64,000 nucleotides of DNA from a virus (IMGVR_UViG_3300032007_003791); one strand, 5' to 3'; numbered from the stretch's first letter, positions 1,152-50,308 are shown. Numbers and translations are program-made. Notes: generated by a model not told the origin, from the sequence alone.

Positions 1152-3356
1152 TTATTTTTTTGAATTGCCTTCAAAGTTCAGCCTTGCATTGGCATACCTG
1201 CGCCCGTCTTTTTCGCTCAATTCGAGTTTCAGCCAGGCGTTGAAGGGTTTCCCTGTCTTGGTAGAGATAAAGCCCTTGACAAGCCCCGTATAGCCTTTTT
1301 CGAGGAGGTGCTTGACGGTAGAGGTGGAGAGGTGCTTACGGAAGACTGTACGGTTGAAGTACAGCCCGCATTCCCTGTTGGAGCAGATGGCCTTATCGTC
1401 CCATACGCGGATGACCGAGTGGCACAGAGGGCACGTGATGGCGTCTGCCGCGGCAGCACGTACCATCTCGTTCCCGATAGAGAGGCCGAAGAGTTGCGAG
1501 GTGATCTTCGATGTGTAGGTGCGGATGTTCTTGTCGAAGTCGGCGGGGTTCATCTTGCCGTCCGCGATTGCGGACAGGGCAATCTCCCAGCGGCCGGTCA
1601 TCTCCACATCGGAGATAGTCATGTCTTTGACGAGCATGTAGGTCTCCAGGCCCACTTCGGTAGGTACGATTTTCTTGCCTTCCTTCTTGAGGAAGTGGCG
1701 CTGGTTGACAAGGATGGAAAGGATGCTGGCGCGGGTGGCGACAGTGCCGATACCGCACTCCTGGAGCGTGCTCTTGATTTCCTCGTCGTCAACCTCCTTA
1801 CCGGCGTACTTCATCGCATCGACAAGGGTGTCGTAGGTATAGAGGGGCTTGGGCTTGGTCTTGCCTTCCAGCGTTTCTACTTTCTTTGCGCTGAGTATGG
1901 CCCCTTCCTTGAGGTCCGGGAGTTTTTCTTCCGGAACCTTGTCAGGGTCGTTGTTGTCTTCATTTGTCTTTTTACCCGTGTCCTTCTCCCCTTCACCCTG
2001 CACGGCTTTCCAGCCGGGCTTTTCCACGAGAGTGGAAGAAGCGGAGAATTCTTCTCCGCCACAGGTGAAGCGGTAGGAGGACACGATGGTTTCGCACGAC
2101 GGAGAGAAGGCTTCCATCATTCGTTCAGCGACGAGCATGTAGATGTTCGTTTCCCTTTGATTGAGTCCGTCCGCTCCTTTCCCTTCCAGGAGGAGGGCGT
2201 GGTGGTCGGTCACCTTGCCGTCATTGACACTACGGCGGTTGAGCCCACCGAAAGGGGTGGCTGCGAGGGACTGAGCGACGTCCTTGAGGTGACCCTGGGG
2301 AAGGGACGAAGCGAGCTGTGCGAGCCGCCTGGGGATGGTCTTCATCATGTCGTAGGGGATGAACTGCGACCCGGTACGCGGATAGGTTACGAGTTTCTTT
2401 TCGTAGAGGTCCTGGAGGATGGAAAGAGTCTCGTCCGGCGAGTAGTCGTAGCGGCGCGACGCTTCTTTTTGCAGGGAGGTCAGGTCGTGAAGGAGCGGGG
2501 CTTTGACCTCGCGCGGCTCGTGCTTGGCTTCCGTCACGGTAACGAGGGAGATACTGCACCGTTTGGCGACGGAAGACGCCTCTTCGTAGGTGTCGTATCT
2601 CTTGACGGACTGGATATGGAAGGGCTTACCCTGACTTTCGGTCAGGATCCGTACATTCCAGAACGGGGTCGGGACGAAGTTCTTATTCTCCAGGTAGCGC
2701 TTGCAAACGAGCGCGAGGGTGGGTGTCTGAACCCTGCCAAGGGAGAAGACACGGCGGTCGACGGGGTTGGCCTTGCGGATGGCGAGCGTGAGGGCCTCCG
2801 TGGCGTTCAAACCGACAAGCCAGTCGGCTTCGTTGCGGGCCTTACCCGCAAGGAAGAGCGAATCGTATTCGCTTGAAGGGCGGAGCGAAGCGAGCCCTTT
2901 GCGGATGGCTTCGTCGGTATTGGAGGACACCCACAGGCGGAGGACGGGTTTGCGACAGCGCGGGTTGAGGTTACAGACGTACTCGTAGATATAACGCTGG
3001 ATAAGCTCTCCCTCGCGTCCGGCATCACCGCAGTTCACGATGGTGGATGCGTTGGCGAACAGCGTCTCGATAGTCTTGAGCTGTTTCTGTTTCCCAGCGT
3101 CGGGTTTGCCATCCTTGGTCGCCACCCTGAGACCGAACGATGAGGGCAGGACGGGAAGGTTCCCGGCCTGCCAGTGGAGGGAACGGTTGTGATCGCCTTC
3201 GTCTATCTCAAGGAGATGACCGAAGGCCCAGGTGACGGCAGCGGCTTCCCCGTTGACCGTCCCACCGTCGATATAACCGTCATGGCGCTGCTTAGCGCCG
3301 ATGATACGTGCGAGGTCCGCACCGAATGAGGGTTTTTCCGCGATGAGTACTATCAT
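1152..3356 (-). CDS. topB: DNA topoisomerase III (type IA; Exc-like of conjugative transposons)
   Basis: 734 aa; Toprim N-terminus (VLIAEKPS), DAGREGE acidic motif, active-site Tyr context TYPRTGSQ; typical type IA length. Confidence 0.9.
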   Translation of the reverse strand: MIVLIAEKPSFGADLARIIGAKQRHDGYIDGGTVNGEAAAVTWAFGHLLEIDEGDHNRSLHWQAGNLPVLPSSFGLRVATKDGKPDAGKQKQLKTIETLFANASTIVNCGDAGREGELIQRYIYEYVCNLNPRCRKPVLRLWVSSNTDEAIRKGLASLRPSSEYDSLFLAGKARNEADWLVGLNATEALTLAIRKANPVDRRVFSLGRVQTPTLALVCKRYLENKNFVPTPFWNVRILTESQGKPFHIQSVKRYDTYEEASSVAKRCSISLVTVTEAKHEPREVKAPLLHDLTSLQKEASRRYDYSPDETLSILQDLYEKKLVTYPRTGSQFIPYDMMKTIPRRLAQLASSLPQGHLKDVAQSLAATPFGGLNRRSVNDGKVTDHHALLLEGKGADGLNQRETNIYMLVAERMMEAFSPSCETIVSSYRFTCGGEEFSASSTLVEKPGWKAVQGEGEKDTGKKTNEDNNDPDKVPEEKLPDLKEGAILSAKKVETLEGKTKPKPLYTYDTLVDAMKYAGKEVDDEEIKSTLQECGIGTVATRASILSILVNQRHFLKKEGKKIVPTEVGLETYMLVKDMTISDVEMTGRWEIALSAIADGKMNPADFDKNIRTYTSKITSQLFGLSIGNEMVRAAAADAITCPLCHSVIRVWDDKAICSNRECGLYFNRTVFRKHLSTSTVKHLLEKGYTGLVKGFISTKTGKPFNAWLKLELSEKDGRRYANARLNFEGNSKK

Positions 3357-4657
3357 GATAAATGCTCAAGGATACTCCCGTCTTTAGACGGGGGAGGAAT
3401 TGAGCATTGATTCCTCTTTTTTGTGTCAATCAAAAAAGAACCGCTATGCCTTACCAGCCTCAGTGATTTGTATGAGGTGGAGTTGGACAGGGTGTGTCCT
3501 TCGAAGTCTTTGACGACGAAGTATCCGGAGTTACGTCTGCCGTGTATGTAGGCAGGAATGTTGTTATACAGGACTATATCAAAGAGTCTGTAGCCCTTAA
3601 TTTCGCGTGGAGCCTGGTTCCGCTTCCAGTGTCCGCCCTTGAGCAGATTAGACTTCATTATCTTGCGGTTGTGCCGACGCAGTTGTTTGAAGCGGAACAG
3701 TTCGCCGGCAGGCCTTGCGTCCGCATTTCCGCTGATGCAGCGCGCGTCAACTGCATGTGATTTTTCCAGTCCGTGTCCAATGCGCGTGTATTTAGTCAGA
3801 TAGTCATAGGTGAGATGAACCGGAACATCAAGCGTTTGCTTCAGTTCGTTGTACACTTTCCATCGCATGACGGACATAAACGCTGCGTCACGGAGCGATT
3901 GACCGGTCCGTTTGACTTTCAGTTCAATCTCTCCGCGATGATAAGCTTTGTGGCAAGTCTCGCACATCGTGACGAGGTTGTCCGGGCTGTCACCGCCAGT
4001 CTTCCGGGACTCAAGATGATGGACGTTCAGGATCCGGTCCTTGCTCTTGCCGTGGCAGTGCTGACACTCGTGATTGTCCCGGAACAGGACATATTCGCGT
4101 ACGTTCCAGAAGCCGAGTTGTGGTCCTTGCTGATACTGTTCACCCGCGATACTGTGGTTCTTCAAAAGCTGTGTATCAAACTGCGCTACTTCAACGGTCA
4201 CGGAGGTGACAGGAAGGAGACGACAGATGTCCTGCGCGGCTTTGACATGTGAATGCACTTTTTGTTGCACGGACGGTGCGAGCCAGCCTGCTCTTTTGGA
4301 CGCCCTTCGGTTCAGGAACCGCGGAGCGTGGTAGCGGATGGAGCGTTTGCCGCGCCTTATGCGTCTGGCCTCTCTGCGTGTGGACAGGTTGTTGACGATG
4401 TCGGAGCGAAGTTCAATTTCCGCTGCATAGAGTTCCTTGTGCTCTGTGGTGGCCGAGAGCCCGATGTGCTTCGAGCCCGCGTCCACGCCGAGACTTACGG
4501 GCTGCGTGTGGTGCGTCGTGTCATACGTGAGTCGGATAGTGAACGGCGTATGTGAGACGATGACGGCTTTTCCGTCACGGAGCATGCGTCGCATCTTGCC
4601 GGCGCGTTGTGTCGGCATCAGCGGAGTTCCGTCTTGTGCTTGAACGTAGATGTACAT
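3353..4657 (-). CDS. iscB: IscB, OMEGA RNA-guided nuclease (Cas9 ancestor)
   Basis: 434 aa; N-terminal PLMP motif (DGTPLMPTQRAGKMRRML), RuvC-I (LGVDAGSKHIGLS), Arg-rich bridge helix (RREARRIRRGKRSIRY), HNH (CQHCHGK...NVHHL...TMCETCH), RuvC-III (HAVDA). Stop overlaps the topB start (ATGA). Confidence 0.85.
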   Translation of the reverse strand: MYIYVQAQDGTPLMPTQRAGKMRRMLRDGKAVIVSHTPFTIRLTYDTTHHTQPVSLGVDAGSKHIGLSATTEHKELYAAEIELRSDIVNNLSTRREARRIRRGKRSIRYHAPRFLNRRASKRAGWLAPSVQQKVHSHVKAAQDICRLLPVTSVTVEVAQFDTQLLKNHSIAGEQYQQGPQLGFWNVREYVLFRDNHECQHCHGKSKDRILNVHHLESRKTGGDSPDNLVTMCETCHKAYHRGEIELKVKRTGQSLRDAAFMSVMRWKVYNELKQTLDVPVHLTYDYLTKYTRIGHGLEKSHAVDARCISGNADARPAGELFRFKQLRRHNRKIMKSNLLKGGHWKRNQAPREIKGYRLFDIVLYNNIPAYIHGRRNSGYFVVKDFEGHTLSNSTSYKSLRLVRHSGSFLIDTKKRNQCSIPPPSKDGSILEHLS

Positions 4658-4978
4658 ACGTCGTTTTGTTTTGTCGTTTCCGCAGGTCCGCTGCGTTGCC
4701 GGATGGTGTCGTAACTCCTTACGGAGTAGTGCAGGCGTAAAGCCTGTGGGTCTCCCGCGCCGATGTTGAATGAGGTTTTGTATGGCAGTGACACTGAACC
4801 TACTCCACAGTTCTTTTAATCACTGTCCGCAGAGCAGAGGGCTGGAAGGAACACCCCCTGGTGCCTATGTATTCTCAATCAACGTAGTTCAAAGGCGTGA
4901 GCCTTATCACTGGGGCTGATCAGCCTGGAGCGTTGGCCTTACGGCATGCTCCCTGTCTTTAGACGGGAGTGGCTGACG
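3358..4978 (-). mobile_element. IS200/IS605-family non-autonomous element carrying iscB only (no tnpA)
   Basis: Same-orientation subterminal palindromic hairpins: RE ctcccgtctttagacggggga at 3374-3396 (nested in the outer inverted repeat aatgctcaa...ttgagcatt at 3361-3409) and LE ctccctgtctttagacgggag at 4949-4969. Confidence 0.6.
4658..4948 (-). ncRNA. predicted IscB omegaRNA (HEARO-type) scaffold, upstream of and abutting the iscB start
   Basis: 290-nt ORF-free region between the iscB ATG and the LE hairpin, on the iscB strand and hairpin-rich. Position matches the known IscB/omegaRNA architecture. No covariance model was run. Confidence 0.5.
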
Positions 4979-4980
4979 GT

Positions 4981-5490
4981 TTACTTGTTTTCGTTAAGGG
5001 CCTTGTTTACGATATGCTGGGTGAAGTTGCTCTCGATATCAAAAGCATTTTCGATATTTGGGAGTTCTTCAATCAAGTCGTTTTTCTTGATGACGGTTAT
5101 TTCGCCGCTCTTGTCGTTGAATATGTCGTTTTTGTAGAGATACTTGATCTGGTTGACAGGGATTTCTATGTTCTTGGCATTGATGCCGGACTGCATGTAC
5201 ACGAACCGCTGGTCGGTGAGTATGACGCGGGTAGTTGCCGTCTTGATGATATCGTTCAGATAAAGACAGAAGAGCGTTACGGCGATAGCTTCGCCTATTG
5301 CAACGAAGATTTTGCTGACGTTGGAGGATACGTTCGAGAGGAGGAAATCGTCGCTGTGTGTCCCGCACATCAGCACGATGGCGAGTGCTGCTGTGGCGAT
5401 GATGCCGATGGACTGCTTCACGAGTTTCTGCTTGGAACCTTTCTGGAAGGAAAGAATGTTTTCGTCTTTGTTGATGTCGAACTGTTTCAT
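4981..5490 (-). CDS. hypothetical membrane protein
   Basis: 169 aa ORF with hydrophobic segment IGIIATAALAIVLMCG. The IscB element LE lies immediately after its stop codon. Confidence 0.45.
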   Translation of the reverse strand: MKQFDINKDENILSFQKGSKQKLVKQSIGIIATAALAIVLMCGTHSDDFLLSNVSSNVSKIFVAIGEAIAVTLFCLYLNDIIKTATTRVILTDQRFVYMQSGINAKNIEIPVNQIKYLYKNDIFNDKSGEITVIKKNDLIEELPNIENAFDIESNFTQHIVNKALNENK

Positions 5491-5503: not shown

Positions 5504-7759
5504 TTAGTTGTTATTTACTTCTTTCGCGTTTTCCATCATTTTTTTGATGGCGTCGTTATTGTTATCGTCGTCTTCTTCTTCCTCGTCGTCTTCCTCGTTT
5601 TCTTCGTCAAGAGGGAGTTCTTCGCGGATGAGTTCGCGGATATCTCTTTTGATTCCGTCGTAGTTCTGCTGGACGACTTCCTTTACGTTTTCTTCAATCC
5701 TCGCTTCGGCCTCTTTCATGAGGATGTCTTCAATCTGGTCGTCATCGAGCATCAGGATAAGGTCCTTCTTTCTCATTTCCATTTCTTCCGGGTCGGCGAT
5801 GATGCCTTCGGACATCAGGGACTGGGTGGCCCAGTCATCAAGGATAATCGCCTTCTCGTCCTCTTCGTGTACCTGGGCAATGATTTCATCGTCATTGAAG
5901 GAGGTGATACGCGGGAGTTTTTTGAAGTTTTTTTCCTTTTCGAGCCAGCCTTTCACGTCGATTTTGATTTCGCCGCAGAAGAATTTTCTCTTGATACGTT
6001 CACTTTTCTTGTTGTTGTCGGCCACCTTCCCGAAGAAGATACCCTGTGAGAGGGTTTCAATCTTTGAGGCCGGCATGATTTCCTCCTGGTGGTAGGAAAT
6101 CTGTACGGAGTCGTGGTCGAGGTTCTGCGTCAGGGACTGCGATTCGCGGTACTCTTTACCCATCGAGTGGGAGAGGTCTTGTGCCGTCTTGCCGTTGACC
6201 TGTCCGGCGATGATGGTGCCGACGGTGTTGAAGATAACGTCCGCTTCTTTCTGCGTGTAGTCACGGATGAGCTGTGTCTTATCCTGGGCGCCGAAGACGA
6301 TGGCTACCTTATTGGAACGCGCTGTGGCGATAAGGTTGTCGAGGCCTTTGAGGAAGATGGTCGGAAGCTCGTCGAGGAGGATACCGCATTTGAGCTTATG
6401 CTTACGGTTAGCGAGTTTGAACAGGCGGCTCGTGTAGAGCGCGAGCACCGTACCGTAGATAGCCTGGCGGTTGGGGTCGTTACCGAGACACAGAATCTTC
6501 GGAGCGTCGGGCTCGTTGATGTCAAGCGTGAAGTCGTCACCGGAAAGCACCCAATAGAGTGCGGGCGAGGACATTTTGTTGAGGACGATTTTCGCCGAGG
6601 CAAGCTGGCCCTGAAGCTGATCCTGTGCGCCACCTTCGAGAGCATCGATGAAGGGACCGATTTTTGTCTCCAGTTCACGGTACTGCGAGACGATGGCGAA
6701 CACTTTCTTATAGTCCTGTCCGAGCAGTTCGATAAGGTGCGGGAAGGTGCAGTAGATACCTCCCTTATAGATAGAGAGGAAGTAAATCAGGATATCTACG
6801 AACAGGGTTGCCGAGCGTGAGAAGAAGTCGGGCTTCTCCAGGGACTCAGGTGACACGTTGGACCAGATGACTTCCGCGATTTCAGCGGTATCGGCGGGGT
6901 CGGTGATGTAACTGCGGTGGATAGGGTTACACCTGTGGGAGTAACGGGGGTTGTTGAAGTTGAGGACGAAGAATTCCGGCGACTTGGGGTCACGGATATA
7001 TTTCGGAAGTTCAGAACCTCTCCTGTAGGCGGGGTTCTTTATCGGAGGGTATTTCTCCAGGTACTCGTTGTAAAGTATCGTAGACAGGTCCGGGAACTTA
7101 TAATCGTACACGCACATGGTGTAGTTCTTCTGCATCATCTGGTGTATGAACGGATTGTACACGGAGAATGATTTACCGGAACCGGGGGTTCCGAGAATCA
7201 TGACGGCACGGAACGGATTGACTACGTTAATCCATCCGTTGTGCATCTTCTGTTTGTACTGGAACTGTGTCGGGAGGTTGATGCTGTCAGGCGTGTCGAT
7301 GAGGTATTCGGTCTGCTCGAAGGTTTCATCCACATCGTTGAGGGGTCTGGTGAAACCCCTCATATTACGGCTGATAGCCGCAATAGCCCAGCTGCAGAGG
7401 ATGTATCCCAGGACCGTGGTCATGAAATACATGTAAGGGTTCTGCGGCCAGACAAAGAAGAGGCCGAGGCCAGCAGCCAGTCCTACGATGATTGCCGCCC
7501 AGGGAGTCTCCTTACCTGTTCCGTTCCGTACGATATGCGTCATGATGACGAGAAGGAGGATGATTGATTTCGATTTGAACGGAGTGGAGAAGACGCCGCT
7601 CTTATGCAGCCTGAGCATAATCGAGTCCCCTATGGGATGACTTATCCCGTAGGCCGCGAAGACCGGGTGGCAATAATAATAAATATTGAACAACAGTATC
7701 ACCATCGCGAAGACAATGATATAGTTGAACGTCTTTTCGTATTCCTGTTTGCTGGCCAT
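5504..7759 (-). CDS. mobC: type IV coupling protein (TraG/TraD/VirD4 family; MobC of Bacteroides-type mob operons)
   Basis: 751 aa; N-terminal TM helices; Walker A GTPGSGKS; acidic C-terminal tail (EENEEDDEEEEDDD). Confidence 0.8.
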   Translation of the reverse strand: MASKQEYEKTFNYIIVFAMVILLFNIYYYCHPVFAAYGISHPIGDSIMLRLHKSGVFSTPFKSKSIILLLVIMTHIVRNGTGKETPWAAIIVGLAAGLGLFFVWPQNPYMYFMTTVLGYILCSWAIAAISRNMRGFTRPLNDVDETFEQTEYLIDTPDSINLPTQFQYKQKMHNGWINVVNPFRAVMILGTPGSGKSFSVYNPFIHQMMQKNYTMCVYDYKFPDLSTILYNEYLEKYPPIKNPAYRRGSELPKYIRDPKSPEFFVLNFNNPRYSHRCNPIHRSYITDPADTAEIAEVIWSNVSPESLEKPDFFSRSATLFVDILIYFLSIYKGGIYCTFPHLIELLGQDYKKVFAIVSQYRELETKIGPFIDALEGGAQDQLQGQLASAKIVLNKMSSPALYWVLSGDDFTLDINEPDAPKILCLGNDPNRQAIYGTVLALYTSRLFKLANRKHKLKCGILLDELPTIFLKGLDNLIATARSNKVAIVFGAQDKTQLIRDYTQKEADVIFNTVGTIIAGQVNGKTAQDLSHSMGKEYRESQSLTQNLDHDSVQISYHQEEIMPASKIETLSQGIFFGKVADNNKKSERIKRKFFCGEIKIDVKGWLEKEKNFKKLPRITSFNDDEIIAQVHEEDEKAIILDDWATQSLMSEGIIADPEEMEMRKKDLILMLDDDQIEDILMKEAEARIEENVKEVVQQNYDGIKRDIRELIREELPLDEENEEDDEEEEDDDNNNDAIKKMMENAKEVNNN

Positions 7760-16439: not shown

Positions 16440-17683
16440 TGAGGGTGGTCTTTTTTGTTGAATGTCCGTTTGTTGGTTGTTGAGGGTGGTTAGGGGTGTT
16501 GTTTTTGTCCGCGAAAGATTCGATGTCCGTTCCTCCTTCCGTGCCAATGGGTTAGCACGGAAGAAAAGAACTGACTGTAGTCCGCGAATGTTTCATAGTC
16601 CGTTTCCCGATAGAGTCCGCGACGTTGATAAGGCGGGTTGGGACGTGCGGCCCGCGGGCCCCTTTTGTGGGTGGGATATATTGAACTCCTGGAGACGGAG
16701 GCCTGAAGTGGCCGGAGTCCCCAGGAGTTTGCGGAAAAAAGGGAAGCGGGCTTTGATTCGGTGTCCCTTGAGCCCTTGGGCTTTCAAGTGCGTTGGGAGG
16801 GCTCACGCGGGGCCCCGTGCAACGCCTCCGGCATCTCTGATGGCGAAGGCGTACGGGGAGGCGTGAGCCCGTGCGGGGAGGGAAAAGCGCGTGGAGGAAT
16901 TGGGTCAAGGTTGTGGGTAGGATGAGGAAAACTGTGTGCGTGTGTGGGGAGGCGAAAAGGGCCCCGTATGTGGGTATATCCATATGCGGTGTAAGGCGGG
17001 AGCCGAAAGGCGCAAAGCCTGGAACAGGTATATGGATATGGGTTTGTGCAGGAGTGGATAGACCCCGTAACCCTTGTGGTGAGGGGTCGGTCCTGGCATT
17101 TTTGAGCACCGGAGTTATGAAAAATATGCCCTTGGGCGTATTTTTTTACGGAGGGCGCAGGAACATGACAGGAATCCACTCCAGGTATACGGGAAAATGC
17201 GGGAGGAAAGGTTGCCGTAAAGGTGTATTGGGGGTTCATTGTTTTTGGTGGTGTTGGGCTTTGGGCGTGTCCGCGAAGGAATCGGTGTCCGTTAAACCTG
17301 CTGGTTCCTGCGAGTGTGTAGGCTATAGAGTGGAGAGAATTGCTGGAGCGGAGCCGGGCGTAGCCCAGCATATCTCCAAGGATAGCAGGATGCAGGTTTT
17401 GAATGTGCGTTTGCGTTTTATATTTTTTTTTGTTTCGGTGCAGGCCGGCCGGCAGGCCGGACTGTTGTGCGGTAGGAAGGGAAGAAAAAACGGTAGGCGA
17501 AAATAGAAAGTTGGGTTCTGTTCTTTAATGGATGCTGTTATTTTTTTCGAAGGGTGGCTGTTTGCGTTGCGTCGAAGGGGTGGAAAAAAGGCGGATGGAA
17601 ATCGTATGCCTGAGCATACGAGACACATCCGCCGTAAAGAAGGGATGCAAACGCAAAGGGCTTTTATGAAATTCGCCCGGGAA
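16440..17683. other. G-skewed gene-free tract 1 (left part; continues at 19326-19760 after the IS605 insertion)
   Basis: No credible ORF; only Gly/Arg/Cys/Trp-rich artefactual frames. Many hairpins and recurring GGGCCCC boxes. Internal direct repeat gtccgcgaa(a/g)ga(t/a)tcg(a/g)tgtccgtt at ~16503 and ~17270. Confidence 0.6.
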
Positions 17684-17766
17684 AACCCACGATTTCAATC
17701 GTGGGATGAAAGGGCGCAAAATTCTTGGAATTTCGGGAAATAATCGTTACATTTGTATGTAACGAA

Positions 17767-18162
17767 ATGAAGAAACTGGCACATCATATCACTTCAGTAG
17801 TGAACATCAGTTACCATATCATCTGGTGTCCAAAGTACCGTCGTAAAGTACTTGTTGATGATGTGGAGCAAAGATTAAAAGAAATACTTCCGCAAATTGC
17901 GGAAGAGATGGGCTGCAGGATTGAGACGATGGAAGTGATGCCAGATCACGTGCGTATATTCATGCGCGGGACGCCAACACTTCCTGTGCATTTGATTGTC
18001 AAGAATCTTAAAGCGGTCAGTGCGAGGATACTACGCTCAGAATTTCCTGAATTGAAACGTCGGATGAATACGATGTGGACCAGGAGTTACTATTGTGAGA
18101 CCGTCGGCAGCATTTCCGAGCAAACCATACAGAAGTACATCGAGAACCAGAAGAATGCTTAG
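17767..18162 (+). CDS. tnpA: IS200-type Y1 (HUH) transposase TnpA, with the HUH motif changed to HVR
   Basis: N-terminus [29 protein letters not shown]; catalytic Tyr region [23 protein letters not shown]; HUH position reads PDHVRIF (cgt codon). Start chosen at MKK (17767) rather than the track start. Confidence 0.8.
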
Positions 18163-19297
18163 GGCAATCAAATACGAACTCCGCCCGAACGCCACACAGC
18201 GCTCGCTCATCAACCGTACCTGCGGATGCTGCCGGTTCGTATACAACAGAGCCCTTGCATTTGCGAAAGAGAACCGTGTCAGCAATTACGACCTTGTGAA
18301 GCGGCTACCCGGTCTTAAGTCCGAGTTCGACTGGCTGAAAGAAGTGCCGTCTCAAGCCTTGCAACAAGCGGTGATAGATCTCGGTAAGGCGTTCAAGAAC
18401 AAGTGGAACGGACACAACGACTGGCCGGTGTTCCACAAAAAAGGTCGGAAGGATTCGTACCGCATCCCGGCCGGTTGCGAGATTGACTACACGCACTATA
18501 AGGTCAAGCTTGCCAAACTGGGGTGGGTCAAGTTTTACAAGGACAAACCTATAGACCAGGCGAAAATACATTCATATACTGTCAGCAGGTCGTCAACCGG
18601 ACGATACTACATATCGCTATTGTACGAAGCGCCTGACCGTTTACCTCTTGCCAACGGGAAGTCCGTCGGTATAGACGTGGGCGTCAAGGAGTTCGCCGTC
18701 TGTTCGGACGGGGTGGTGTTTGAAAACCAAAAGCACTACCGGCGTCAGATGCGGCGTCTTCGCGTCCTACAGAGGACGATGGCTCGGCGTTACGACAAAG
18801 GCAGGGATATTTACGATGCAAACGGGCGGAAAATCGGCGAGAACGGTCCTCAGTCAAGGAACTGGTACAAAGCCAAGGCGGCCGTTGCCAAATGCCATGA
18901 GAAAATCAGGAACCAGCGGAACGACTATCTCAACAAGGTAAGTTCCCTGATTGCTTCTCAATATAGCATCGTCTGTGTCGAAGACCTGAACGTCAAGGGC
19001 ATGGTGAAGAACCGCCATTTGTCAAAAGCAATATCCGACTGCGGCTGGACCGCATTCAAGACGATGCTGAAATACAAGTGCGACACGCTCATCGAGGTGG
19101 ACAGGTTCTTCGCGTCCAGCCAGACGTGCCATTGCTGCGGCTATAAGAACGTTCGTGTCAAAAACCTGTCCGTACGTGACTGGGTCTGTCCCGAATGCGG
19201 GACACACCACGACAGGGACGAAAACGCCGCACAGAACATACTCCGGGAAGGACTGTCTCGGTATTCCATAAGCGCTTCAGTGGAAGCGCTGGGATAG
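18157..19297 (+). CDS. tnpB: TnpB (OrfB; RuvC-like RNA-guided nuclease of IS605)
   Basis: ~380 aa from [12 protein letters not shown]; split RuvC (GIDVGVKEF...; [11 protein letters not shown]), C-terminal zinc finger CHCCGY...CPECG. Overlaps the tnpA 3' end. Confidence 0.9.
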
Positions 19298-19325
19298 AAC
19301 CCCACGAATTCATTCGTGGGAGCAG

Positions 19326-19760
19326 TCAGGATGCGGTGTTTTTACTGCGCCGGGCCCCGTGAAAGGGATTCTCAGAGCGTCTCTGAGTACCGAACGGGAA
19401 GCGCAGATATGAGAAAGCGTCGGGTCCCGGGGAGCGTGCGGCGGAGTGTTCCTCCGCCGCAAGTCTCAACGGGTGACGCGAATTGGGGAAAAGTCGGGCC
19501 CCGTGAAAGCAAGCGATGAAAATCTGATACGAATAGTATCAGAGGGTCATCGCAAAATTGAACGGGTGACGAGTGGGATGGGTGAAGGAAGTGGGTGTTT
19601 GTTTTATGGCTGAGAGGGAGGTCGGGGGCACTGAAAAGAAATGGGGAAGGAACCGTAGTCCCCTCCCCCGTATAAGGATACTTGGATGTTGTCTGTTTAG
19701 GATTTAACCACTTTTTGCGTTTACCCGGTAAGGGGCTGACTGCAATTTGAGGTTGAAAAC
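19326..19760. other. G-skewed gene-free tract 1 (right part) / likely TnpB guide-flank region
   Basis: No ORF; repeated gggccccgtgaaag boxes at ~19352 and ~19496. Composition matches 16440-17683. Confidence 0.5.
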
Positions 19761-46981: not shown

Positions 46982-47213
46982 TTGTGTTGTACCTTCGCGT
47001 GATTTCACCACGTGGACGCTCGCGTCCATAAGTGGATGAAATCTAAGCAAGAAGGCACTACACAAAATCCCTTTCTGCAAGGGTTTTTCAGGTAATTACG
47101 ACCACGAGGCCCCCTTGTGGGGCCGAAGCCCTCGCCAGGGGCGAGGGGGCTACTGCCTGGTGGAGAATTCCTGAAAAAAGAGCTCAACGAGCTCACCACT
47201 TGCGGAAAGGGAA
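46982..47213 (-). repeat. intergenic repeat family A, copy 2
   Basis: Near-identical blocks to copies 1 and 3 (cgcgtgatttc.ccacg.g, ggacgc..gcgtcc, ataagtgg.tgaaatctaagcaagaaggcac, ccctttctgcaagggtttt, ctgcctggtggag, gagctcaacgagctc, cacttgcggaaaggga). Confidence 0.7.
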
Positions 47214-47589
47214 CCGGTACAAAGTTGACAGAAAGGGGATAGAAGGGTTGTTATTGGAATGAAGAAGCCCGTTCCCACCGGAAGGCGGGGACGGGCTATA
47301 GAGGAAAAGAATTCTCCGATGAGGTTTCAAAAAGGAGGCCCGGTGAGGGGTCTCCTGAAGGTGATTATTTCTTTTTGATTGTCATTTCCTTAATGGCTTT
47401 TTTCCATTTCAGGAAGAGTCTTTGGGCTTTTGATTTTCTTTTCTTTCTTTCGAAGTTTAGCGGTAATTCTGGAAAGATAAGGTCAGGATTGAGCACCATG
47501 TCCTTGAGCCTTTGTTGGATTAAACTCCATTCAAACTTGCCATGTAGCATGTTTATCGATTCGAAGTTATCGATAGACTTAAAATAGAG

Positions 47590-47676
47590 CAATTTCTTTG
47601 TTGCGAACATCGCGCTGTCTGTGTTTTGACGTACTCCCGCCGGCTAAAGCCGGGGGATTCTTAGATGCTAACGCAT
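47590..47676 (-). ncRNA. putative TnpB RE / omegaRNA 3' region of the solo TnpB
   Basis: Hairpin ccggc-taaa-gccgg within gtactcccgccggctaaagccgggggat (47636-47656), 20-40 nt past the tnpB stop. Same tactcccg-hairpin-gggga layout as the IscB RE. Confidence 0.45.
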
Positions 47677-48803
47677 CAGCCTGCAGTCGCTACGCTCGTG
47701 CAGGTCTTACAAATGCTCTCTAACTCGGCGACGCCCCGTCGATAGATATTCATGGCTGCATGTGCATCACGGAGATGATGCTGTCCACAGACCGGACAGG
47801 TCCAGTCCCTGTCACTTAACTGCAGCCCGGTGTTCTTGTATCCGCAGTCACAGAGTTTCGAGGAAGGGTACCACCGGTCAATCTTGTGGACGGTGGTGCC
47901 ATACTTCGAAGCGATGTATCCCAGCACTTTGACAAAGCCTGTCCAGCCGAGGTCGTTGACTTTCCGTCCCCAATGTTTCATCTTGGCCATGCCGGAGATA
48001 CCGAGGTCCTCGATAAACAGATAATCATACTCCCTGCAGAGCATATGCGCTGTCTTATAGAACCAGTCCGTCCGCTTATTAGCCAGTTCGGCATAGACAT
48101 GGTTTAGTTGTCGGCGATACGCCCAATAATGTGCAGAACCCTTTTCGGACTTAGACAGCAAGCGCTGCCACTTCTGCACCTTGCGAAGAAGTTTCTTATA
48201 GAACTGCGGCGCTTCTATTTCCCGTCCGTCCGAGAAGGTCATGAAGGTCTTGAGTCCGAAGTCTATACCCGCGGATGCACCTGTGTGTGACTTTCCGCAG
48301 GGCTTGGGTTTCGCATCCGTTACGACGAGGATAAACCAGTCGCCGTGTGAACGGAATACCCGGACAATCTTGACCTTGCCCTCCCAGTCCCGTGACTTGA
48401 AGAATTTGAAGCGTTTGGATATCTTGTTGATGATGAATTCGTTGCCGTATAGCTTATACCCGTCTTGTTTGAAGACGAACGAGGTGAAATCCTTTGCTTT
48501 TCTGAACTTCGGCGGACGTTTGTTCGTATGGTTGAAAAACAGATGGAAAGCATTGTCCTGTCGCTGCAAAATTTCCTGTACGGTCTGTGCGCCAAGTCTT
48601 GTTCTTGCAACATGCATTTTAAAGTGGTGTTGTATTCTTTTGCAGCTGATGTATTTTACTTCCCACCCAAAAGTCTTTGCCAGGGAGTAATAGCGTTTTT
48701 GCAGGGCGAGAGCATGATTCCAAACAAACGCAGCCTCAGACATCATGTGTTCAAGGGCGATGAGTTTCTTGCTATGGCAGAGTTTGTACTTGTTTGAAAT
48801 CAT
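47676..48803 (-). CDS. tnpB: TnpB (solo; no tnpA)
   Basis: 375 aa; RuvC-I GIDFGLKTF, RuvC-II FIEDLGISGM, zinc finger CDCGY...CPVCG, RuvC-III DAHAAMNI. Confidence 0.85.
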   Translation of the reverse strand: MISNKYKLCHSKKLIALEHMMSEAAFVWNHALALQKRYYSLAKTFGWEVKYISCKRIQHHFKMHVARTRLGAQTVQEILQRQDNAFHLFFNHTNKRPPKFRKAKDFTSFVFKQDGYKLYGNEFIINKISKRFKFFKSRDWEGKVKIVRVFRSHGDWFILVVTDAKPKPCGKSHTGASAGIDFGLKTFMTFSDGREIEAPQFYKKLLRKVQKWQRLLSKSEKGSAHYWAYRRQLNHVYAELANKRTDWFYKTAHMLCREYDYLFIEDLGISGMAKMKHWGRKVNDLGWTGFVKVLGYIASKYGTTVHKIDRWYPSSKLCDCGYKNTGLQLSDRDWTCPVCGQHHLRDAHAAMNIYRRGVAELESICKTCTSVATAG

Positions 48804-49512
48804 ACGTTATTCATCTGACACAAAGTCAAGGTCAATGCTTTTTCTGTGTCCTATCTGGAGGGACAGGGCGGTTCCCCCGACCAGAAGGTAGTCTTTTAGT
48901 GCTGGTTCGGAGCTCAGGCGTTTCAGCAGTTCCAACGTGTAGGGTTCTACTGTGGTATAATGGAGCATTTCAGGTCTTTGTCTTTTAGATTGAAAGCAAA
49001 TTTCACGAAGTTTTTATCTACATCGGACATTTGTGGGATTTGTCGGATGAGTTTGATAATCTTTCTTGGTCCTCCATAGAGCTGCAGCAGGGCGTATCAG
49101 TCGTTCCTGTTTCCGAGTTCAATGACCCTTCGGGTGACAGTTATGGAAATGTTGTTCCATTGGTTTTCAGTGAATCCGTCAGTGTCGTATTCCCAGAGGA
49201 GTTTCTTTGGGATGACTTGATGTGGATATGTTTTCCAATCGTTGAAGAGCATGACAGATTGTCGTATTATTTGTTGCAAATATAGTGTTTCTTGTCCAAT
49301 TCAAAAAATGTGCTGGTTGTTCCTACTGTCATATCAGTAATAAAAAGTGCGACCTTTTTGCACTTTATCTTCAAAAATTTCCGAGATAAAGTACGTTTAG
49401 CTCGCACTTTTTTAGGATAATAAGTGGGAATCCTCCCTGGTTTTAACCGGGAGATGAAAGCGTCTTTGATTTTTGAGAGGTGATATATTTCACCACGGTC
49501 TTTTCCGATACG

Positions 49513-49537
49513 GATGCTCCCTGTCTTTAGACGGGAG
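49513..49537 (-). repeat. solo copy of the IscB-element LE hairpin sequence
   Basis: atgctccctgtctttagacgggagt is identical over 25 nt to 4945-4969; flanking sequence differs. Lies directly after the stop of ORF 49557..49853. Confidence 0.7.
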
Positions 49538-49556
49538 TATATCACGTCTGTGTAGT

Positions 49557-49853
49557 TCACAAATCCTTGAACCAGACTGTAATCACCTGCGGAATATCGT
49601 TCATCTTGACGCATCCTCCGCAGGTGATTCCCGCGACGCTCAGCGGCGTTTCTTTTGGGTTTTCTACGATTCCTCCGTCTTTGTCGATGTGACGGAATCC
49701 CCAGTCGTACAGGACGTCGGATGGATAATAGTTTGCCCCGCCGTATTGGTATTTGTATTTCTCTGGACATCCAAGTAGTACTGCCGTGAAGTATGAAAGT
49801 GCGAGATGGACTTTGCATTCCATTTCGTTTACCTGTTTCTGCAGTTTTTTCAT
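49557..49853 (-). CDS. hypothetical protein
   Basis: 98 aa ORF. Confidence 0.4.
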   Translation of the reverse strand: MKKLQKQVNEMECKVHLALSYFTAVLLGCPEKYKYQYGGANYYPSDVLYDWGFRHIDKDGGIVENPKETPLSVAGITCGGCVKMNDIPQVITVWFKDL

Positions 49854-49870
49854 GGCATGATGAATTCTAA

Positions 49871-50308
49871 TTATTTCCGGTTGAAGGCTTCTTCCAGGAA
49901 AGAGGCGAGCGTCTCGGTTGCGAAGGCTTTAGCCTCATCTTCGGGCAGTTCGGGAAGCTCGATGTCGCAGTATTCACTGTTTAGGATGTCGCCGTTCCGG
50001 TCGTAGATGAAGACCTCATACCAGTTGTTGTTGATGATATCGGTGTTTTCCGGCCAGGAGGACTGGTCATTCATCTTGCCGGAGCGGATGAATTCGGTCA
50101 GTTCGTCCGGGTACTGGGAAGCGTCTTTGTAGATTTGGTCTTTCCAAAGGATACGGACGTCACCTATGACGCGGACGATGACCGTCCATAGACCGTTGTC
50201 GAACTTGGCTTCGATGACTTTCTGATTCTTGGAGAGGAGGAGTGAGTCCGTGATGGTCTTTCGGATGTTTTCAGGGAGCATCCAGAAGGAGTCGATGGTG
50301 TGTTTCAT
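49871..50308 (-). CDS. hypothetical protein
   Basis: 145 aa ORF. Confidence 0.45.
   Translation of the reverse strand: MKHTIDSFWMLPENIRKTITDSLLLSKNQKVIEAKFDNGLWTVIVRVIGDVRILWKDQIYKDASQYPDELTEFIRSGKMNDQSSWPENTDIINNNWYEVFIYDRNGDILNSEYCDIELPELPEDEAKAFATETLASFLEEAFNRK

Follow-up and report, generated by a model that had tools for sequence, protein, structure and literature searches.

An apparently intact, non-autonomous IS200/IS605-family element carrying iscB and an omegaRNA between two genes of a conjugative-element-like region

The closest described system to the locus reported here is the GstIscB element of the ISGst family in Geobacillus stearothermophilus (Meers et al. 2023), a non-autonomous IS200/IS605 insertion sequence with iscB as its only gene and an upstream omegaRNA that is bounded by the right end (RE) of the transposon, the guide being taken from the flank outside RE. 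In the 64,000-nucleotide stretch IMGVR_UViG_3300032007_003791 (hereafter the window, positions 1-64000), the segment 3357-4977 is very probably an element of the same type, that is, an intact non-autonomous IS200/IS605-family insertion sequence whose sole gene is iscB, for an RNA-guided DNA nuclease of the type ancestral to Cas9, together with an omegaRNA. The GstIscB target-adjacent motif (TAM), experimentally determined as TTCAT, lies 5' of the left end (LE) (Meers et al. 2023); at this locus and in its relatives the motif is NTCAT, and in Firmicutes relatives T[C/T]CAT. In the ISGst network, end hairpins are common to IscB and TnpB elements and the transposase TnpA acts in trans, and about 98.5% of iscB loci carry no tnpA in the element (Meers et al. 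2023). End hairpins shared with TnpB elements are likewise present here, where supply of TnpA in trans is predicted. The locus differs from GstIscB in phylum (the context is of Bacteroidales type), in its hairpin sequences, in its conjugative-element host, in the mutated HUH motif of the sole tnpA in the window, and in being known from sequence alone.

Other described systems place the locus further. OgeuIscB (PDB 7UTN, 7XHT, 8CSZ) has the same domain order and catalytic residues and uses an RNA of the same family, HEARO, but has 496 residues against 434 here; its phmmer alignment is confined to residues 3-124 and 105-340, leaving the C-terminal region unaligned, and the omegaRNA region of the present locus is longer, with 320 nt from RE to the iscB ATG. 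The OgeuIscB TAM, which we take to be NWRRNA, is compatible with the flanking ATGATA found here. IS608 and ISDra2 likewise insert 3' of a short motif without duplication and have subterminal hairpins; the Y1 HUH TnpA family is represented in the window but not inside the IscB element, and their cargo is tnpB, whereas here iscB is carried on the strand opposite the top strand. As far as sequence can show, the locus has every defining feature of an IscB and of a non-autonomous IS200/IS605 element. The locus is a fresh, clear example of an already well-described type of system, and it leaves the known picture of IscB unchanged.

IscB protein and omegaRNA

The iscB gene occupies 3353-4657 on the minus strand and encodes 434 residues with a PLMP motif (residues 12-15), a split RuvC domain, an arginine-rich bridge helix stretch (RREARRIRRGKRSIRYHAPRFLNRR, residues 94-118, within RRXRR), an HNH domain and a C-terminal TAM-interaction region. 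The original prediction took this open reading frame (ORF) to be a complete IscB, and searches with IscB profiles agreed over its full length: the NCBIfam equivalog NF040563 (guided_IscB, "RNA-guided endonuclease IscB") scored 342.6 bits against a cutoff of 175, Pfam RRXRR covered residues 3-178 (E = 3.4e-57), Pfam HNH covered residues 198-241 (E = 5.7e-8), and PDB IscB chains (OgeuIscB 7XHT/7UTN and others) were matched by phmmer at E values of 1e-44 to 1e-43. The catalytic residues of the split RuvC are D59, E156, H301 and D304, and the HNH residues are C198, C201, H213, H214, N227, C232, C235 and H236; D59, E156, H213/H214, H301 and D304 align to OgeuIscB D61, E193, H246/H247, H340 and D343. 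Loss of RuvC or HNH residues on alignment would have spoken against the prediction, and all of them are intact. Across 20 homologues with 66-91% identity, the catalytic positions and the four zinc-binding Cys/His positions (the CxxC..CxxH ligands of HNH) are invariant, except for D59, which is at least 90% conserved, and many relatives share the same full length of 434 residues. For codons 1-415, the ratio of nonsynonymous to synonymous substitution rates (dN/dS) against four close relatives was 0.10-0.15 at dS values of 0.4-1.1. On the strength of the profile matches, the kept residues and this ratio, the protein is complete and under purifying selection.

An HNH domain inserted in RuvC, the feature that separates IscB from IsrB, is present. 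The Cas9d model reached 16.5 bits against a cutoff of 375, and the protein is small, at 434 residues, and has no recognition (REC) lobe. No CRISPR repeat RNA family exceeded its Rfam gathering score in the window, where repeat arrays were not directly searched. Automatic gene calls (loci L001-L003; 4618-4657 in the window) begin iscB at Met14, giving a 421-residue protein; this start drops the first 13 residues and cuts into the PLMP domain, and the ATG at 4657 (MYIYVQ..) is favoured by homologues and by Pfam RRXRR.

Directly upstream of this HNH-containing ORF, the Rfam family HEARO (RF02033) matched 4746-4977 on the minus strand with 112.6 bits (gathering score 83, E = 8e-24), spanning the whole model from position 1 to 211; it was the sole Rfam family above threshold in the window. 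The hairpin-rich region upstream of iscB had been predicted to encode the omegaRNA, and the covariance-model match fell at the predicted place and on the predicted strand. Two details of that prediction needed amendment: the segment 4658-4948, described as free of ORFs, overlaps a meaningless 58-residue ORF at 4618-4794, and the hairpin at 4949-4969, placed outside the omegaRNA, is part of the scaffold, at HEARO model positions 9-29. Three further hairpins lie 3' of the Rfam model (about 4746-4732, 4727-4714 and 4695-4681), conserved and covarying within this clade, so that the scaffold runs over 4681-4977 on the minus strand and an A-rich linker separates its last hairpin from the iscB ATG at 4657. 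That RF02033 is without such downstream elements was remarked by Meers et al. (2023). By applying RNAalifold to the interval from element end to ATG in eight Bacteroidales-type loci, 79 pairs were obtained, 14 of them with compensatory changes on both sides. Since the minimum free energy of the single sequence was modestly better than that of shuffles (z = -2.2), it is the comparative evidence that carries weight for the fold.

The predicted guide template, at 4978-4993 on the minus strand (RNA 5'-CGAAAACAAGUAAACC-3'), is host DNA directly outside RE, and the stop codon of the upstream 169-residue gene (4981-4983) falls within it. Among eight loci the scaffold start is identical, while the 16 nt upstream of GTCAGCC differ in every related locus. 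A guide at about 4975-4995, drawn from the flank outside the hairpin end, had been anticipated, and its position is here refined; the guide sequence occurs once in the window.

Element ends, empty sites and TAM

The element measures 1621 bp on the plus (top) strand, with LE at 3357 and RE at 4977. Similarity among eight related loci, which come from different genomic contexts, first appears at exactly GTCAGCCAC (GTCAGCC; window 4977) and runs as far as ..TTATC (window 3357), after which ATG[A/G] follows. Through homologues of the upstream 169-residue protein, two empty sites (L046 and L047) were found that join both window flanks as ..AAGTAAACC|ATGATAGTACTC... The first reads ..CGAAAACAAGTAAACC|ATGATAGTACTC.., which is the two window flanks joined, its end ..AACGAAAACAAGTAAACCATGATAGTACTCATCGCGG... 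being window 4993-4978 joined to 3356 and downward; the second has the order coupling protein, 171-residue gene, 3-nt spacer and topoisomerase III. From the similarity limits and from these empty sites with a single TCAT/ATGA, the ends are placed at 3357 and 4977 with no duplication, and the combination of no target duplication with a single TCAT/ATGA at one side is the IS200/IS605 signature. The comparison of guide and target foreseen in the original prediction could be made at these same sites: L046 matches the guide at 16 of 16 positions and continues with ATGATA, and L047 has 2 mismatches to the guide.

The insertion target and TAM, TCAT at 3353-3356 on the plus strand (ATGA on the iscB strand), is host DNA outside the element. 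Codon 434 of iscB takes its last base from it, and the TAM supplies both the iscB stop TGA (3355-3353) and the topoisomerase III start ATG (3356-3354). In relatives, the host bases after the iscB-distal end read ATG[A/G] in 32 of 32 independent junctions (among them L040, L043, L044, L007, L008, L050 and the Firmicutes loci L010-L037). This fixed motif stands beside the other features of the IS200/IS605 family found here, namely the lack of terminal inverted repeats and of target-site duplication and the presence of imperfect subterminal hairpins on the same strand at both ends. Meers et al. (2023) describe the HEARO region as bounded by the transposon RE and the TAM as abutting LE; on that basis the plus strand is the top strand, with the TAM at 3353-3356, LE starting at 3357 and RE ending at 4977. 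The labels of the two ends had been swapped in the original prediction: by the TnpA convention, the omegaRNA end is RE and the iscB 3' end is LE.

At LE, an inner hairpin at 3375-3394/3396 (CTCCCGTCTTTAGACGGGGGAG) is enclosed by an outer stem (3361-3369 with 3400-3408), the whole structure covering 3361-3408 on the plus strand, and at RE a hairpin covers 4948-4970 on the plus strand (CTCCCTGTCTTTAGACGGGAG), its opposite strand forming the first inner hairpin of the omegaRNA. Both hairpins had been recognised in their correct places and as brackets of the element. They are indeed transposon ends; the inner one at the iscB 3' end begins at 3375 rather than 3374, and the exact ends of the element, 3357 and 4977, lie beyond them. 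Three copies of the core CCCGTCTAAAGAC are present in the window (3380-3392, 4955-4967 and 49523-49535), against 0.06 expected by chance. Folded as single-stranded DNA, 3353-3415 reaches -13.7 kcal/mol (z = -4.8), and 4935-4985 gives z = -2.0. In IS608 about 18 nt separate the cleavage site from the hairpin at LE and about 8 nt at RE; the spacing here, 18 nt at LE (3357-3374) and 7-8 nt from the RE hairpin to 4977, is alike and supports the assignment of the ends. The Rfam family HgcC also gave a weak match at 3282-3417 on the plus strand (28.6 bits, gathering score 50); the LE hairpin accounts for it, and it was rejected as chance.

The LE structure lies inside iscB codons 417-433, the last 19 codons reading ..SIPPPSKDGSILEHLS. 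In codons 416-434 no synonymous change was seen in four comparisons, where about 4-8 would be expected from dS values of 0.4-1.1 elsewhere. In more distant relatives the hairpin is swapped for CCCACGAATGAATTCGTGGG and the tail peptide is altered, with pairing kept by compensatory changes. The missing synonymous changes and the hairpin replacement together indicate that the iscB tail is conserved as DNA structure and not as protein. Related elements also include mixed forms. Loci L044 and L045 (protein P0009) are hybrids with a type B hairpin (CCCACGAATGAATTCGTGGG) at the omegaRNA/RE end and a type A hairpin (CCCCCGTCTAAAGACGGGAG) at the iscB 3'/LE end; their downstream flank is common to both and their upstream flanks differ, giving different guides. 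At L043, the 11 nt directly outside RE (GTCAGCCACCC) copy the first 11 nt of the element, a repeat that may have been left by an earlier insertion or by an imprecise event.

The element sits as a scarless insertion between two genes of a conjugative element, within a co-directional string formed by a type IV secretion system (T4SS) coupling protein (5504-7759), the 169-residue gene (4981-5490), the element itself and topoisomerase III (1152-3356). The surrounding region is conjugative-element-like, with a relaxase, MobC, a ParA-like protein, a single-stranded DNA-binding protein (SSB), RadC, a PcfJ-like protein and a DNA methylase. According to Meers et al. (2023), production of an IscB omegaRNA depends on transcription that enters the element from outside. 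No site resembling a promoter or a terminator was found on the minus strand between 3000 and 5700, and scans near the element for the sigma-70 consensus and for the Bacteroidetes-type TTTG..TAnnTTTG were empty; the sigma-70 model does not cover Bacteroidetes promoters and its silence is weak evidence. Upstream genes are co-oriented in all five contexts with gene calls (the window, L039, L040, L043 and L044). From the empty scans, the co-oriented genes and the argument of Meers et al. (2023), we infer read-through transcription into the element.

These observations suggest the following course of events. The element inserted 3' of top-strand TCAT, exactly between the stop of the 169-residue gene and the ATG of topoisomerase III. 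Read-through from the upstream genes would then produce an RNA joining 16 nt of host flank (4993-4978) to the scaffold (4977 to about 4681). The same transcript would carry iscB, with translation stopping at the TGA within the host ATGA, in an overlap with the topoisomerase III start. By analogy with the family, IscB is predicted to cleave double-stranded DNA in dependence on guide and TAM, and its function here would be to cut DNA with the TAM (ATGA..) after the guide match, that is, the uninterrupted site, either as the donor joint left after TnpA excision or as an element-free allele; the L046 allele, with 16 of 16 positions plus ATGATA, is a perfect natural target. Repair from an element-bearing copy would restore or spread the element. 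Where the element is present, RE and not the TAM comes after the guide match, and the element should not cut itself. Movement would need a Y1 TnpA acting in trans that recognises both subterminal hairpins, and TnpA is predicted, again from the family, to excise and integrate the element on single-stranded DNA.

Transposase source and rival readings

No tnpA was found inside the IscB element, either among its ORFs or in a Pfam scan, and the element is thus non-autonomous. The scan covered all 134 window ORFs of 95-260 residues and returned one Y1_Tnp, at 17725-18162 on the plus strand (E = 1.5e-40), so that the description "TnpA-less" in the original prediction is right for the element and wrong for the window. 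This tnpA belongs to an autonomous-looking IS605-type tnpA-tnpB element at 17660-19335 on the plus strand, in which it overlaps tnpB (18095-19297, 400 residues). The LE hairpin of that element is CCCACGATTTCAATCGTGGG at about 17685-17704, with TTTAT 18 nt upstream, and its RE hairpin is CCCACGAATTCATTCGTGGG at about 19301-19320; both are of type B, CCCACGA(A/T)TTCA(A/T)TCGTGGG, a type also found in the IscB relatives L043, L008 and L009. The motif of the window TnpA is DHVRIF, against DHIHIL/DHIHLF in IS608 and 2ec2, the second HUH histidine being an arginine, and the enzyme is possibly inactive. Its role as mobiliser of the IscB element is doubtful on two counts, the histidine-to-arginine change and the type B end hairpins.

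A scan of metagenomes for the type A RE hairpin recovered 15 loci in three classes. The first consists of IscB omegaRNA ends. The second consists of TnpB-type ends, two of which (L058 and L060) also have a TnpA whose DHVHLF motif is intact and, at LE, the hairpin CCCCCGGTTAAAACCGGGAG; in these tnpA-tnpB elements the identical RE hairpin closes the TnpB-side end. The third class, which is gene-less, is identical with the window's third copy of the hairpin. As the TnpA of L058 and L060 goes with the same RE hairpin, a cognate transposase family exists in nature, as it does in the ISGst network.

The third hairpin copy of the window is part of a gene-less pair of about 130 bp at 49410-49550, in which CTCCCGGTTAAAACCAGGGAG (about 49432-49452, then ..CACTTATTATC) is followed by the type A hairpin CTCCCGTCTAAAGACAGGGAG at 49517-49537, the latter preceded by GTGATATA. 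The LE and RE types of this pair are those of L058 and L060, its flanking motif is TTTAG and not TCAT, and the end formed by GTGATATA, the hairpin and CATCCG also occurs in the metagenome loci L056 and L062. The pair looks like a miniature (PATE-like) derivative. A second omegaRNA near this hairpin was considered and rejected, with no HEARO match in 47000-50000 at E values up to 10. A second TnpB element, this one without tnpA, lies at 47620-48970 on the minus strand; its TnpB (47676-48803, 375 residues) is 52% identical to that of L058, and an RE-like hairpin CCCCCGGCTTTAGCCGGCGGGAG, then TACGTCAA, is found at about 47630-47655. Directly upstream of this TnpB is a 53-residue N-terminal fragment of an AbiEii toxin ORF (48807-48968), and the element may interrupt an AbiEii gene.

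Several points count against an intact and mobile IscB element. An active cognate TnpA was not found in the 64-kb window, the sole Y1 TnpA being mutated and its element having another hairpin. The 434-residue protein and the present insertion occur on very few contigs, and recent mobility of this copy is not demonstrated: exact look-up of the full protein returned no record, the 421-residue form was found on 2 contigs, both with the same context, and exact look-ups of the 169-residue gene, topoisomerase III and the coupling protein led only to the same insertion or to contig ends. Cleavage and expression at this locus are predicted from the family. The guide length of 16 nt is assumed from OgeuIscB, and the precise RNA ends are assumed as well.

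The transposase evidence would also fit an element that has become stranded or domesticated, immobile and retained by the conjugative element to cut insertion-free copies of itself or of its relatives, in the service of competition, exclusion or gene drive among conjugative elements and not of transposition. Besides the mutated HUH motif and different end hairpins of the only TnpA in the window, it would account for the match of the guide, at all 16 positions and with a TAM, to the element-free allele of the related but different conjugative element L046, and an insertion that leaves the gene string undisrupted would allow long-term retention. Both ends are nevertheless intact and conserved as DNA, and close relatives occupy at least 8 different contexts, which indicates a mobile lineage; the window covers 64 kb of the host genome and a TnpA could be encoded elsewhere in it. 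Cutting of element-free alleles is, moreover, also predicted by the standard homing model, so that the two accounts overlap. We regard this stranded state as improbable. Still more improbable, to the point of being hardly credible, is a decaying insertion sequence copy whose protein or RNA no longer works. The rarity of the exact copy in public data would be in keeping with decay; the ORF, however, is of full length, 434 residues as in many relatives, with all catalytic and zinc-binding residues kept and a dN/dS of 0.10-0.15, HEARO is matched along its whole model (positions 1-211), and both ends are intact. An intact non-autonomous element served by a transposase in trans thus remains the preferred reading.

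Window context and insertion at start codons

The window as a whole resembles part of a conjugative plasmid or of an integrative and conjugative element from a Bacteroidales-type organism. Its genes include the T4SS coupling protein, a MobA/VirD2 relaxase, MobC, a ParA-like protein, SSB in two copies, RadC and topoisomerase III, along with the PcfJ-like protein, a C5 methylase, the anaerobic ribonucleotide reductase NrdD and a MoxR/VWA pair. Its IS200/IS605-type content amounts to three elements and one miniature element. Among IscB relatives of about 50-55% identity, many copies per genome occur, with at least 15 loci in RD49 and 5 in Youngiibacter fragilis (L013-L037 from Erysipelotrichaceae RD49 and 51-3; L010-L012 and L027 from Youngiibacter fragilis). 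Each of these Firmicutes copies has a different flank after the same end, which points to recent transposition bursts.

Two details of the locus may be less familiar, namely that the stop codon of iscB lies outside the element and that the ATGA which provides it also starts the downstream host gene. Read on the opposite strand, the TAM [C/T]CAT is a start codon followed by one further base (ATGA/ATGG), and it is conceivable, albeit on balance doubtful, that this is an adaptation and not an accident. The element would then be built to land between an upstream gene and the next ATG, with the host ATGA serving as transposase target, as TAM, as iscB stop and as an intact downstream start translationally coupled to iscB. 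The window fits all of these roles, the topoisomerase III ATG lying at 3356-3354 and its start being shown by the empty sites. In most Bacteroidales copies the iscB stop is the TGA of the junction ATGA, and ORFs of 100 residues or more start at the junction ATG in 7 of the 8 Bacteroidales junctions and in 16 of all 32, against a control rate of 23% that is inflated by internal Met codons, with ORFs and not annotated starts being scored. The 2009 HEARO paper of Weinberg and colleagues reportedly describes integration next to ATGA or GTGA, which would be in line with the junctions found here. We regard the pattern as a lead that a large survey would be needed to establish.

The locus offers a compact (434 residues) and, from its sequence, apparently functional IscB for which the natural system is fully defined in its ends, guide, TAM and empty target, and it lends itself directly to biochemical testing or to screens for genome editing. 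It also provides a clean natural case of the OMEGA nuclease homing model, here on a conjugative element. The only possible addition to knowledge is recurrent insertion at downstream start codons with the TAM as the iscB stop; if such insertion is an adaptation, the element would gain outside transcription for the guide without damage to the host operon.

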